A DNA stretch of 64,000 nt from Tequatrovirus BCH953P2. The translations under genes were made by a program, and so were the position numbers. Positions 42,016-50,312 of the stretch are shown in pieces. Numbering within the stretch: the first letter of the stretch is position 1; every line of letters begins with the position of its first letter. The DNA is taken from sequence record OZ035785.1, one strand, 5' to 3'. The notes under the pieces were generated by a model. That model was not told where the DNA came from. It saw nothing but the letters and a program-made list of their open reading frames with translations, and ran no database searches.

Positions 42016-42489
42016 TTATTTGAATGATTTAACGTACTGAATAGAACCTTTACTATTCACAAAGGCAATTTTACCATTTTTGTTATACATGGTAGCAGTA
42101 CGCTGATAGCCATAAGTTTGTTTACCAGATTGATAACCAACTAATGCAAAATTATCTTCACCCATTTTATTCTGTTTAGCGCGAATGCGTTCATGGCCAT
42201 GTGCCATAAGAACCTTAGCATCACCAGTTGCAATGGATCTACGAGTTTTTTCATCTTCAACTGTATTAACAAAGTCGTCAAATGAATCAAATTTAGCATG
42301 AGATTTATTATACAGTTTTCCATCTACTGCATAATTATATCCCTGTACATCCATCTCAACTTCTGTACCATCATCCAATACAGCAGTGATTTTTTGACCT
42401 TTTTTAAATTTCAAAAGATCAGTAAAAGATTCAGCAATAATTTGAGAATTAATAGCTGCTTCAGTGATAAATTCTTGATATGTTTTCAT
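42016..42489 (-). CDS. internal-protein-like (capsid-targeted) protein
   Basis: 157 aa beginning MKTYQEFITE, matching the T4 internal protein capsid-targeting leader with I-x-E at residues 8-10. Confidence 0.6.
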   Translation of the reverse strand: MKTYQEFITEAAINSQIIAESFTDLLKFKKGQKITAVLDDGTEVEMDVQGYNYAVDGKLYNKSHAKFDSFDDFVNTVEDEKTRRSIATGDAKVLMAHGHERIRAKQNKMGEDNFALVGYQSGKQTYGYQRTATMYNKNGKIAFVNSKGSIQYVKSFK

Positions 42490-42498
42490 ATGTTTCCT

Positions 42499-42915
42499 TT
42501 AAATGTAAATATTTTTACCGTAATACTTATACCAATGTGGTTTCATTAAAATTTTTTCATCAAGTCGTTGTTGACTCAATTTAATAGCTGATTTGCATGG
42601 ATTATAATCATTTTTCCATTCTACTGGAATATCGCTGATGTCAGGAACTTCAGTATCTTTTATACTGAACCCTCGTTTTAAGCATTCCGTTATAATGTCC
42701 GATTGACGCTTTCGCAAAAATTCTAACTTATCGTAAAAGAAAGTAACATGACCAGAACCTAAAATAAATTTAGAAGATATTTTAAAATCTTTAACGCGCT
42801 TACCATTTGCCACATGCTTACGAACTATACCAAAAACACGTGGCAATTCACGATATTCTGCGATTAAATGTTGATCAGCAAGTTCAGATACTAAAGTCAA
42901 ATTAATACGAGTCAT
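42499..42915 (-). CDS. denV: endonuclease V (pyrimidine dimer glycosylase)
   Basis: 138 aa; [18 protein letters not shown]-terminus. Confidence 0.93.
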
Positions 42916-42940
42916 TTTATCCCTCCAAGTAACTGTGAAT

Positions 42941-42970
42941 ATACTATCACAATTCTAGGAGAAAGTAAAC
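42941..42970 (-). promoter_or_regulatory. T4-type early promoter for denV
   Basis: Minus strand GTTTAC, 18 nt, TAGTAT. Confidence 0.5.
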
Positions 42971-42974
42971 AACT

Positions 42975-43469
42975 TTATAGATTTTTATACGCGTCCCAAG
43001 TGCCAGTTCTAAACGTTGCAATGACTCGTTTTGCGCGATTAGGTGTTTGATTATACCATCTACTTTTAGCTAAGTTAACTGCTGCTTCATCCCAGCGTTT
43101 TTGTTGAAGCATACGCAAAGAGTTAGTGAATCCAGCTACGCCAGTTTCTCCCATTTGGAAAACCATATTAATCAATGCACAGCGACGAACAGCATCAAGA
43201 GAATCATAAACTGGTTTTAATTTAGCATTTCTCAAAATTCCACGAACAGCAGCATCAACATCCTGGTTAAAGAGTTTTTCAGCCTCATCTTTTGTAATTA
43301 CGCCATTGCAATTACGCCCAATAGCTTTATCTAATTCAGATTTAGCAACACTTAATGATGGACTTTTAGTAAGCAAATGACCAATGCCAATAGTGTAATA
43401 GCCTTCTGTGTCTTTATAGATTTTAAGTCTAAGACCTTCATCTATACGTAACATTTCAAATATATTCAT
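42975..43469 (-). CDS. e: lysozyme (endolysin)
   Basis: 164 aa from [31 protein letters not shown]; track ORF is 5' over-extended. Confidence 0.95.
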
Positions 43470-43482
43470 AATACCTCCTAAG

Positions 43483-43490
43483 TATTTATA
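43483..43490 (-). promoter_or_regulatory. late promoter TATAAATA upstream of e
   Basis: Exact TATAAATA on minus strand about 14 nt upstream of the e start; a second copy at 43497-43504. Confidence 0.6.
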
Positions 43491-43498
43491 GAAGGTAT

Positions 43499-43948
43499 TT
43501 ATAAAATTAAAAAAAGGTTGTTCATTATTCGGTAAAGTGAAGGACCCATCACATATTGCCACTGAGTACGAGGAATAAGAGCAAAAGCATCCATCTCTGG
43601 AATCATAACACCATCTTTATTTTCAAAATAAGACTCACAATAGCAATTTCTGAACATCTCATGCTCTACTGGAATCGCATAATAAAATAGCTGTAAGTCT
43701 TTATTACTAGAATATTTAAATACACCTAGGTCTTCTAGAAGGTCTGGATTATAATTGCTAAAACCGGTCTCTTCTAAACATTCTCTTCGTGCTGCATCTA
43801 GTGCACTTAAATCAGAATTTTCTACACGGCCCTTTGGAATATCCCAGCGATGTGCCATCATTCCAGGCTTACGAGAACCAGTAACCCGACCCATAAATAA
43901 ATCTTTATCTTCTGTCATGAAGATAATACCAGCTGATAATGTTTTCAT
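43499..43948 (-). CDS. nudE: Nudix hydrolase
   Basis: Nudix box [23 protein letters not shown]. Confidence 0.8.
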
Positions 43949-44307
43949 TTTAATTTCCTGCAATCACTCACAAACTCTTTCATTGATTCATTTTCAATAT
44001 AAGACATGTAGCTATTATATTCTTTTAATTGTATTTTGTAATCCTTTTTTCTTTGCCAATTTATTTTAAAATTATCATAATGAAAATATAACATGGTACC
44101 AAAGAATGAAAATAATGAAATAATTTTAGTATAGTGAAGTTCACTCCAAACTTCTGTTATATTTACTGTGCCGTCGATGTTTAAAATAAGACAGTCAATT
44201 AACAATCCAAAAAGACTACCCGCAAGAGCTGCAGCCAACGCCACAGCAAAAATTAAAAATGACTCAGGAAGAGAATATTTGACTTTATTTAGTTTTGGCT
44301 TTTGCAT
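43945..44307 (-). CDS. membrane protein
   Basis: 120 aa with hydrophobic segments. Confidence 0.45.
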   Translation of the reverse strand: MQKPKLNKVKYSLPESFLIFAVALAAALAGSLFGLLIDCLILNIDGTVNITEVWSELHYTKIISLFSFFGTMLYFHYDNFKINWQRKKDYKIQLKEYNSYMSYIENESMKEFVSDCRKLK

Positions 44308-44702
44308 CGTGATTCCTTAACAAATTTCATAATTTCATCAAATTCGTATGCAGCAAGTTTAAGCTGGTGTTCCTTTTTAATCTTTTTACACTGTGCTTTC
44401 CAATCACGTACGCGTTTACGATAATGTCTTCCTTGATACCAGTATCCTACCCAATTTACCGGTACTAATAAAAGTGGAACTACCAATGGAAGAATTAGCA
44501 TTAACACAAGTATTTCGCCAGAATCAATATCAGTCATAACATCTAAAACACCTCCAATAATCAATAGAATTACAAATGATATAAGTATAACAGGACCTAT
44601 TAATACATCGGTAGAAATTATCTGGTGCTTTGATTCATACTTCAAAGGTTTACTTGGAAGGTATAGTGATGGTTTTGACATATTCTCTACATTCCTTAAC
44701 AA
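44289..44702 (-). CDS. membrane protein
   Basis: 137 aa with hydrophobic segments. Confidence 0.45.
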   Translation of the reverse strand: MLRNVENMSKPSLYLPSKPLKYESKHQIISTDVLIGPVILISFVILLIIGGVLDVMTDIDSGEILVLMLILPLVVPLLLVPVNWVGYWYQGRHYRKRVRDWKAQCKKIKKEHQLKLAAYEFDEIMKFVKESRCKSQN

Positions 44703-48899: not shown

Positions 48900-48904
48900 A
48901 AATT

Positions 48905-48991
48905 TGGTGCGAGAAGTGGGACTCGAACCCACAAGGAAATCATTCCGCAGCATTTTAAGTGCTGTGCCTTTACCAATTTGACCATTCTCGC
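48905..48991 (-). tRNA. tRNA-Leu (anticodon UAA), type II
   Basis: 87 nt, CTTAAAA loop, long variable arm, CCA encoded. Confidence 0.88.
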
Positions 48992-48992
48992 G

Positions 48993-49065
48993 CTGGGAAT
49001 AAAGGACTCGAACCTTTGCATCTAGCAGTCAAAGTGCTATGCCTTACCAACTTGGCTAATTCCCA
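48993..49065 (-). tRNA. tRNA-Gln (anticodon UUG)
   Basis: TGGGAAT/ATTCCCA acceptor stem, CTTTGAC loop; no encoded CCA; abuts tRNA-Leu. Confidence 0.88.
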
Positions 49066-49162
49066 ATTATTAACAAAGGCTCTCAAACAAGAACCCTTGA
49101 TGATAGAGGGTATTAATCAGTGCGGTATGAGTTAATAATAACAAATAATTCTTAAAGCATAT

Positions 49163-49450
49163 TTACCATTTATGATGATACATACTTACGATGCATTCAA
49201 GACCTAAAGGATTCTTGAAAATATCATATTCAAGAGGACCTTTTTCTGTTTCAATAAAGAAATCAAAATTTACTGTATTAAATTTACGGTCTTCCTTTAC
49301 TAATTTAACTTGAGAAGATGAACGGTCAATGTAAACCTTTTCAACTTCAAAACATGTTAAAACGCCATAATCATCAATCAAGGCTTTAGCTGCGTCTTGA
49401 TCATATTTATATCCATTTTCAATGGATGATACTTTAGCATAAAGAATCAT
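49163..49450 (-). CDS. hypothetical protein
   Basis: 95 aa ORF. Confidence 0.45.
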   Translation of the reverse strand: MILYAKVSSIENGYKYDQDAAKALIDDYGVLTCFEVEKVYIDRSSSQVKLVKEDRKFNTVNFDFFIETEKGPLEYDIFKNPLGLECIVSMYHHKW

Positions 49451-49452
49451 TA

Positions 49453-49872
49453 TCAGCCTTCATCAACAATAGTATGAGTGTGGGCATTTACAATTTGCCA
49501 CCAATCAAAGCGATTAGAACCATACATCGGTTTGTTTTCATTTTCTTTGATAATATCACGGAGTTCATCTTCGGTAGCGGCTTTCGCGATTAAATCAGCA
49601 TATCCACCACGAGGATAATAATTATCACCTGCAAAAAGTAAAAAGTTTGGTTTAATATTATTAAACTCTTCAAGAGTAATAACTGTTCCACCAGGTTGAA
49701 CAATCTCTACATAACTATATCCTAATTTTTGAGCAGCATCTACTGCTTCAAGCAGGGTATCATGAGCCCATCCAATTTGGCAATCTGGCTTTTCAGATGG
49801 ATTAGCCTGATAATCCGCGTACACTTTATACATTCTATTCACCTTTAGAAATTTTATCCATAACGATAGCAA
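49453..49872 (-). CDS. hypothetical protein
   Basis: 139 aa ORF. Confidence 0.5.
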   Translation of the reverse strand: MLSLWIKFLKVNRMYKVYADYQANPSEKPDCQIGWAHDTLLEAVDAAQKLGYSYVEIVQPGGTVITLEEFNNIKPNFLLFAGDNYYPRGGYADLIAKAATEDELRDIIKENENKPMYGSNRFDWWQIVNAHTHTIVDEG

Positions 49873-50020
49873 TTAAACCAATTAAAAATGCTACTACAAG
49901 TGAAAAAACATTTTCTGCTGTAGTCAATAATCCGCATATAAATCCAACAAACATTGAAAAACTAAAAGCGGAAGCAGAAATTGCAATAGCAACATTTCGA
50001 ATTAATTCACAACGTTTCAT
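49835..50020 (-). CDS. small membrane protein
   Basis: 61 aa, hydrophobic; early promoter directly upstream. Confidence 0.4.
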   Translation of the reverse strand: MKRCELIRNVAIAISASAFSFSMFVGFICGLLTTAENVFSLVVAFLIGLIAIVMDKISKGE

Positions 50021-50048
50021 TTTATTCTCCTCAGTAGTAGATAGGGTA

Positions 50049-50078
50049 ATAGTATCACTACCCTATCTAAAAGTAAAC
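50049..50078 (-). promoter_or_regulatory. T4-type early promoter with -10 inside an inverted repeat
   Basis: Minus strand GTTTAC, 18 nt, TACTAT; 10 bp arms AGATAGGGTA / TACCCTATCT flank the -10. Confidence 0.55.
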
Positions 50079-50312
50079 TTATTTTTTACGAAAAATTGAT
50101 TTATTTTCTGCTGCCCATTTTTCAATAACTGCAGCCGGACCAGTAACAACAATTTTATCACCGTAATCTTCTGCGGCGAGTTGACCGAAATTATCTAATG
50201 CATCACGAAGAACTCCATGAGGCATTTCACCCATTTTATCTTTCTTGCCAGTGTAAATAAACTCAACTTTTACATCAGAAGATTCAGCGATAAATTCTTT
50301 AAACGTTTTCAT
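50079..50312 (-). CDS. internal-protein-like (capsid-targeted) protein at the ipI position
   Basis: 77 aa beginning MKTFKEFIAE; located next to 57B where T4 has ipI. Confidence 0.6.
   Translation of the reverse strand: MKTFKEFIAESSDVKVEFIYTGKKDKMGEMPHGVLRDALDNFGQLAAEDYGDKIVVTGPAAVIEKWAAENKSIFRKK

Follow-up and report, generated by a model that had tools for sequence, protein, structure and literature searches.

The internal proteins of phage T4 are encoded at two loci, one between e and denV (ipIII and ipII) and one between 57B and trna.4 (ipI). Injected internal proteins take effect ahead of all phage gene expression. Each of the three (Ip1, Ip2 and Ip3) inhibits a distinct GmrSD type IV restriction enzyme, and the proteins of 'the two Ip loci' have been proposed to all target GmrSD enzymes (Silas et al. 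2025, PMC12373910). Mutational work on the capsid-targeting sequence (CTS) of IPIII assigned residues 4 and 7 to targeting and residues 8 and 10 to processing (PMC9026906), and IPIII is active in the cytoplasm without its CTS (PMC9391042). At least ten alternative internal proteins with a common leader have been reported (Repoila 1994, as cited in PMC12373910), and exchange of the cargo by recombination in the conserved flanks is also published (Repoila 1994, as cited in PMC4122927 and PMC12373910). Here, three open reading frames (ORFs) that begin with a leader of this type are described from a 64,000-nucleotide stretch of Tequatrovirus BCH953P2 (sequence record OZ035785.1), referred to as the window. 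ORF1 and ORF3 are the known, named internal proteins IpIV and IpVI. ORF2 probably represents an internal protein that has gone unrecognised and is the only new element of the three, being unannotated wherever checked, located outside the two recognised loci and provided with its own late promoter. A first-pass annotation made from the window alone had drawn attention to the three genes together and did not single out ORF2.

The window belongs to a Tequatrovirus with ~96% identity over the studied region to phages REP2, teqskov and UFV-AREG1. The three leader-bearing genes reported by the first-pass annotation are present at the positions it gave, all on the minus strand (Table 1), and ORF listing and translation showed the plus-strand translations to be stop-ridden. 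Across the six frames of the 64-kb window the pattern MK[ST][YF]xxF[LIV]xE has exactly three matches, every one at the start of an ORF. Shuffling the window 200 times produced no match to the strict pattern and a mean of 0.04 matches per shuffle to a looser one; the three occurrences are not due to chance. The targeting determinants are Y4 and F7 in ORF1 and ORF2, and F4 and F7 in ORF3. Cleavage sites predicted from the sequence for the prohead protease gp21 (L/I-x-E, residues 8–10) read I-T-E10 in ORF1, L-N-E10 in ORF2 and I-A-E10 in ORF3. As in IPI, IPII and IPIII of T4, a leader of about ten residues with an L/I-x-E gp21 site heads proteins that are small, dispensable and mostly basic. Internal protein sets differ between T4, T2, T6, PST, REP2 and UFV-AREG1, consistent with a dispensable and variably present class; the numbering of the proteins was traced via the GenBank annotations of PST, T2 and T6.

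Read along the minus strand, the gene order of the denV region is e, denV, ORF1 and vs.8. That of the tRNA region is 57B, ORF3, trna.4, trna.3, trna.2, ten tRNA genes, an ORF with a T5orf172 domain, rnaD/rnaC, ORF2 and e.8. ORF3 occupies exactly the ipI slot of T4 and is preceded by the ipI promoter and untranslated region (UTR). ORF1 adjoins denV on the vs.8 side, within the vs.8-to-e interval that also holds ipIV in PST and T2, and has a UTR of the ipII/ipIII type. ORF2 lies between e.8 and rnaC, where T4 has a spacer only and no ip gene. The first-pass annotation had assumed a single ip position in T4, from denV to e, which overlooked the ipI locus. Its description of 'non-T4 positions' is apt for ORF2 but not for ORF3, which sits in the ipI slot, or for ORF1, which sits in the denV-region locus.

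ORF2 is labelled 'hypothetical' in every source and record checked, and an internal-protein reading of it was absent from the annotations and literature searched. It matches phrog_2280, of 'unknown function', over its full length (E=4.8e-60), and is thus a full-length member of a family that carries no functional label. Searches with tblastn located ORF2 in 511 phage records, near full length in 467. T4 and PST lack it according to tblastn, as do T2 and T6 on inspection of the gap between e.8 and the tRNA genes. If it is an internal protein, ORF2 would have escaped 50 years of internal-protein biochemistry because T2, T4 and T6 lack it.

Relative to T4, the ORF2 cassette is a clean 0.52-kb insertion, with ~35 bp of T4 sequence aligning to both flanks. 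The cassette consists of a terminator hairpin, the late-promoter box TATAAATA, a ribosome-binding site (RBS), ORF2 and a second hairpin, after which colinearity with T4 resumes. REP2 shows the same arrangement of hairpin and late promoter. In Klebsiella phage KP1 (Jiaodavirus) a hairpin of different sequence followed by agTATAAATA precedes the ORF2 homologue, and in Yersinia phage fHe-Yen9-01 (Tegunavirus) TATAAATA lies 38 nt upstream of two adjacent leader ORFs, the second of which is the ORF2 homologue. No perfect TATAAATA is present within 400 nt of T4 ipI, ipII or ipIII, so that the dedicated late promoter distinguishes ORF2 from the T4 ip genes. A late promoter fits a head component.

The region of fHe-Yen9-01 at 2200–4037 contains three consecutive leader ORFs of 52 aa (MKTYIEFINE), 189 aa (MLQYNEFLKE) and 178 aa (MLEYSEFLKE), all annotated as hypothetical. 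The 178-aa ORF is the homologue of the ORF2 N-terminal domain, and the TATAAATA box stands upstream of the 189-aa ORF.

The bracketing of both ORF2 and ipVI by repeats resembles the shuffling of cassettes by promoter early stem-loop (PeSL) elements in the hyperplastic regions of T4-like phages (Repoila 1994; Arbiol 2010; Comeau 2014, PMC4122927). Like the cassettes described there, ipVI is bracketed by two early-promoter elements and ORF2 by a stem-loop direct repeat, and relatives differ by the clean presence or absence of the ORF2 cassette. However, the ORF2 repeat is a rho-independent terminator hairpin that is then followed by a late promoter, rather than a composite of early promoter and stem-loop.

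Within its leader ORF2 retains all four of the experimentally defined CTS positions (Y4, F7, L8 and E10). The leaders of the ORF2 family include MKTYNEFLNE, MKSYAEFLTE, MLEYSEFLKE, MKFKEFLAE, MLKFNEFLAE, MINFSDFLNE and MKSFSSFLNE, and down to 26–37% identity across Tequatrovirus, Jiaodavirus and Tegunavirus M1 and F7 are fully conserved and L8 almost so. At the DNA level the ORF2 leader shares 17–22 of 30 nt with other ip leaders, and the UTR, with 9–14 of 30 nt, is unrelated. The leader DNA is therefore not a recent copy of the ip leaders, and the leader has been kept by selection on the protein.

An AlphaFold2 (AF2) model of ORF2 comprises a helical N-terminal domain (residues ~18–75) that carries an AWKS motif and has a predicted local distance difference test score (pLDDT) of 80–88, a linker (residues 76–87) and a C-terminal helical hairpin (residues 88–154). 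The linker is disordered and rich in Lys, Pro and Ala (KASGKPAPKADPKAAQEK). The leader is disordered in the AF2 models of both ORF2 and IpIV, and this was counted in favour of the internal-protein reading. The N-terminal domain with its AWKS motif is conserved across genera, and some members of the family, including those of the Klebsiella and Yersinia phages, carry a different C-terminal domain. Mature ORF2 is predicted to have a mass of 15.5–16 kDa and an isoelectric point (pI) of 9.5, compared with 9.6 for IPII and IPIII. In a deep hidden Markov model search the ORF2 family proved small, with 14 representatives in 1.84 billion, and was unconnected to any annotated family.

Published proteomics of a related phage bear on packaging. 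Liquid chromatography–tandem mass spectrometry of purified virions of phage fD1 (phiD1) flagged g140, g129 and g146 each as particle-associated, in upper-case PPAP (PMC8309999 Table S3). The g140 product is the ORF2 orthologue (96% identical), g129 is IpIV and g146 is an ipI-slot protein. The detection of g140 supports the packaging of ORF2 and does not prove it. The fPS-2 paper was also examined for virion proteomics and contains none.

ORF1 matches Pfam family DUF7412 (PF24183) over its full length (E=5.7e-96; score 319 bits, gathering cut-off 27; positions 1–157 of 158) and also matches phrog_3155, an 'internal virion protein'. It is 100% identical to IpIV of PST, where ipIV occupies the corresponding position (annotation of the Krisch laboratory), and an exact-sequence look-up returned the names 'IpIV internal head protein' and 'Ip4'. 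ORF1 contains a candidate second protease site, I-A-E20, at which E20 and the hydrophobic character of the P3 residue are unchanged in 14 homologues. By comparison with IPI, which is cleaved after residue 19, a second cleavage of IpIV at E20 is probable, judging from these residues. Residues 10–20 are disordered in the AF2 model of IpIV (pLDDT 76; predicted template modelling score 0.71). A 60-nt block made up of 28 nt of UTR and 32 nt of ORF1 coding sequence shows 95% identity to T4 ipII and 94% to ipIII. The gene contains three A6 runs. Its setting varies between phages: ipIV directly follows denV here, whereas PST has ipIII and ipIV without denV, and T2 has ipIV alone. At the overlap with the ip-type UTR (window 42499–42517), the C-terminus of denV reads ..GKNIYI here in place of ..GKAIYA in T4, a difference suggestive of a recombination junction at which the ipIV cassette became joined directly to denV.

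ORF3 matches phrog_8111, an 'internal virion protein', over its full length (E=3.3e-51) and is 100% identical to IpVI of PST (AGR46087.1), the gene for which lies at the corresponding position. Exact-sequence look-up gave 'internal head/virion/core protein', and the T6 gene annotated as Ip6 is equal to ORF3 in length and position. Compared with IpIV (DUF7412, phrog_3155) and IpVI (phrog_8111) of T-even phages, ORF1 and ORF3 are these same proteins and nothing substantive differs. The promoter, 5'UTR and first 21 nt of the ipVI coding sequence (to codon 7) share 96.5% DNA identity with the T4 ipI region before homology breaks, and near-perfect homology to T4 returns 21 nt past the ipVI stop. 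ORF3 has one A6 run.

The cassette anatomy of ORF3 and ORF1 agrees with the published exchange of internal protein cargos. The first-pass annotation, which proposed exchangeable slots with unrelated cargos, was right in kind. Replacement of the cargo alone is visible in the DNA flanks of both genes. The concept itself is not new: swappable Ip genes had been reported in 1994, as cited in the later literature, and Ip1–3 have been shown to be GmrSD inhibitors (PMC12373910).

In the ipI slot ipVI is the sole occupant here, whereas PST and T6 also have ipV/Ip5 there. Close relatives hold one to four different small ORFs in this slot: IpVI and IpV in PST, REP2 (10247–10814) and T6 (10017–10584), Ip7 and Ip5 in T2 (11808–12443), and four ORFs including ipI in UFV-AREG1 (9367–10665). 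This variation illustrates the hyperplasticity of the locus. Overall, T2 carries ipIV, ip7 and ip5, and T6 carries Ip6 and Ip5.

Comparison of the three ORFs with one another and with T4 IPI, IPII and IPIII by BLASTP revealed similarity essentially confined to the leader, with longer extensions that were weak (27–35% identity). Once the leaders were trimmed, hhalign probabilities fell below 3%, the noise level, for all nine pairs of cargo and T4 internal protein, and the ORF2 family profile aligned to IPII and IPIII through the leader alone. A profile match between IpIV and IPIII (hhalign probability 64%) was rejected as a leader artefact: the Viterbi alignment comprised residues 1–13, and a score at least as high was reached by 29 of 150 shuffled versions of the mature IPIII region. 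By sequence, the three cargos are unrelated to each other, as the first-pass annotation had stated, and they are equally unrelated to T4 IPI, IPII and IPIII. Inhibition of GmrSD is assigned to Ip1–3 of T4, and would extend to the unrelated cargos here by analogy.

Profile and structure searches of the kind that the annotation had proposed yielded DUF7412 and phrog matches for ORF1, phrog matches for ORF2 and ORF3, and no significant PDB match for the ORF2 and IpIV models. Solved-structure sequences, Pfam, NCBIfam and PADLOC gave nothing besides DUF7412 for ORF1, and in BFVD the ORF2 model matched its own orthologues only. The expectation that the cargos would be uncharacterised is correct for their functions; however, ORF1 and ORF3 are already named IpIV and IpVI and are 100% identical to the PST proteins.

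It is likely that all three are CTS-targeted, gp21-processed and injected internal proteins, with cargos that most likely neutralise defences and with ORF2 as a new member of the group. In such a scheme the leader of about ten residues would target each protein to the scaffolding core during prohead assembly, and gp21 would remove it by cutting after L/I-x-E, at E10 in all three proteins and probably also at E20 in IpIV and E15 in ORF2. The mature proteins, of ~15.5 kDa (IpIV), 15.5 kDa (ORF2) and 7.4 kDa (IpVI), would remain in the head and be injected with the DNA. IpIV and IpVI are exchangeable occupants of the two classical Ip loci, swapped by recombination in the shared promoter, UTR and leader DNA and in the flanking promoter/stem-loop repeats. 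ORF2 resides on a separate cassette inserted after the tRNA/rnaD/rnaC transcription unit. By analogy with Ip1–3, the cargos would most likely neutralise defences that attack incoming modified DNA, such as GmrSD type IV variants.

Several observations weigh against this interpretation. Packaging, cleavage and injection in this phage, together with the anti-defence role, are steps that we infer. The fD1 preparation was unspecific and yielded DenV, lysozyme, NudE, Tk and 672 host proteins as well (PMC8309999). A late promoter was considered as a general hallmark of internal proteins and rejected, the T4 ip genes being without a perfect late box. The AF2 model of ORF2 is only moderately confident (pLDDT 72), Foldseek searches of the PDB with the ORF2 and IpIV models gave nothing significant (best E values of 1.1 and 0.12), and sequence and structure searches found no fold or family pointing to anti-defence activity in any of the cargos. 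IpVI, with a near-neutral pI of 6.5, is unlike the basic internal proteins of T4. Finally, ORF2 lies outside both loci that house all described internal proteins and is without early-promoter/stem-loop flanks. By location in a recognised Ip locus, ORF1 and ORF3 qualify and ORF2 does not. This criterion tells where known internal proteins occur and not what defines one, and ORF2 is therefore not excluded from the functional class.

A more specific version of the interpretation can be advanced tentatively, and is rather doubtful as a whole. In this version ORF2 would mark a third internal-protein locus, a late-promoter cassette bracketed by terminators, and would be a modular injected protein with a defence target differing from those of Ip1–3. 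The cassette would lie downstream of the tRNA/rnaC genes in Tequatrovirus and Jiaodavirus, with the Tegunavirus member following a late promoter. The protein would combine a conserved N-terminal domain with an exchangeable C-terminal domain and possibly a slippage switch at an A7 tract.

As a credible alternative, although on balance an unlikely one, the basic ORF2 protein may have a structural role in association with DNA. ORF2 would then be packaged via its leader and act in the head interior as a structural protein that neutralises charge or organises the packaged DNA, rather than in anti-defence. The pI of ~9.5 of the mature protein and the Lys/Pro/Ala linker KASGKPAPKADPKAAQEK between two helical domains are in keeping with this role, as is the binding of DNA by T4 internal proteins at low salt (PMC9026906). 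ORF2 also has a late promoter only, and its position after the tRNA cluster is shared by Tequatrovirus and Jiaodavirus, in contrast to the hypervariability of the classical Ip slots. However, T2, T4, T6 and PST are without ORF2, which is therefore not needed for head assembly or DNA packaging, and its C-terminal domain is swapped between genera in a manner typical of conflict-driven proteins. All three T4 internal proteins, which are also basic, proved to be specific restriction inhibitors (PMC12373910).

The A7 homopolymer, which coincides exactly with the junction of the two ORF2 domains, raises the further idea that ORF2 is a phase-variable injected effector in which slippage toggles between a two-domain and an N-domain-only protein as a form of bet-hedging. 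Simulated +1A and −1A frameshifts at this tract yield products of 97 and 111 aa. The database variants P0021/P0052 and P0050/P0053 (P0053 being 108 aa long) share the simulated frameshift point and length; the tail of the +1A variant is identical to the simulation and that of the −1A variant only partly so. Such natural variants occur in several independent records, and T2 and T4 are reported to contain homopolymer contingency loci (bioRxiv 10.1101/2025.10.21.683753). Nonetheless, runs of A6–A7 are common in a genome of 35% G+C, errors of homopolymer sequencing or assembly yield an identical pattern, the frameshifted forms are a small minority of records, and the repeat in T2 ipIV showed zero variation (bioRxiv 10.1101/2025.10.21.683753). 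The tract could be a contingency locus or a homopolymer sequencing error, and phase variation is considered improbable.

Least probable of all is that the leader resemblance is non-functional and ORF2 a late cytoplasmic protein, neither packaged nor cleaved: the hypothetical label in all annotations checked, the location outside known Ip loci, the sole virion evidence being from the contaminated fD1 preparation and the difference from the canonical leader at 5 of 10 positions would agree with this, but the four CTS positions are kept, the leader is the most conserved short segment at 26–37% identity in three genera, an L/V-x-E site falls within residues 8–16 in every family member, and the motif has zero chance expectation.

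As the three T4 internal proteins are GmrSD inhibitors, the wider repertoire of internal proteins amounts to a catalogue of first-strike anti-defence proteins, within which IpIV and IpVI are named but functionally blank. If ORF2 is an internal protein, it adds to this repertoire a family that is widespread (511 phage genomes, among them therapeutic phages and phages of the BASEL collection) and entirely missed by current annotation, and leader-based searches should reach beyond both classical Ip loci. This would be of practical help in host-range prediction for T4-like therapeutic phages and would supply a further natural leader for packaging and a further cargo scaffold. As the general principle had been established before, the gain is incremental.

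Table 1. Positions of the three leader-bearing genes and their associated elements in the 64,000-nt window of Tequatrovirus BCH953P2
Feature	Position	Strand	Remarks
ipIV (Ip4) gene (ORF1), 157 aa	42016..42489	minus	leader MKTYQEFITE encoded at 42460-42489
ip-type 5'UTR and RBS (..aatatttacatttaaaggaaacat)	42490..42517	minus	overlaps the denV 3' end; 28/30 nt identical to the T4 ipII 5'UTR
Second copy of terminator hairpin	46662..46685	minus	immediately after the ORF2 stop; direct repeat brackets the cassette
ORF2, unannotated candidate internal protein, 157 aa	46693..47166	minus	leader MKSYAQFLNE; second L-N-E site (E15)
A7 homopolymer, ORF2 codons 93-95	46883..46889	minus	at the junction of the two ORF2 domains
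Late-promoter box TATAAATA, perfect	47203..47210	minus	the ORF2 ATG follows 37 nt downstream; the terminator T-run lies 2 nt before the box
Intrinsic terminator hairpin downstream of rnaC, upstream repeat copy	47217..47240	minus	from terminator scan; colinear with ~70834-70857 of the T4 record
Downstream promoter/stem-loop copy (trna.4 promoter)	50015..50078	minus	brackets ipVI; 76% over ~65 nt to the region upstream of T4 ipI
ipVI (Ip6) gene (ORF3), 77 aa	50079..50312	minus	leader MKTFKEFIAE encoded at 50283-50312
PeSL-type early-promoter/stem-loop and 5'UTR of ipVI	50313..50390	minus	TTTACA-17-TACTAT at 50343-50371

Neighbouring genes of the tRNA region also differ from those of T4. A 58-aa ORF (window 45942–46118, minus strand; ORF130 in PST) has no family match and replaces T4 e.7 between e.6 and e.8. 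Between rnaD and tRNA-Arg, a 184-aa ORF (window 47528–48082, minus strand) encodes a MUG113/T5orf172 domain (Pfam E=2.6e-9), whereas the site is empty in T4 and holds an unrelated ORF of 116 aa in T2. This 184-aa ORF probably represents a mobile insertion related to nucleases. Window 48104–49065 carries, on the minus strand, ten tRNA genes (Arg, Asn, Tyr, Met/Ile-CAT, Thr, Ser, Pro, Gly, Leu and Gln), compared with eight in T4, and tRNA-Asn and tRNA-Tyr stand in place of the T4 homing-endonuclease gene segB.

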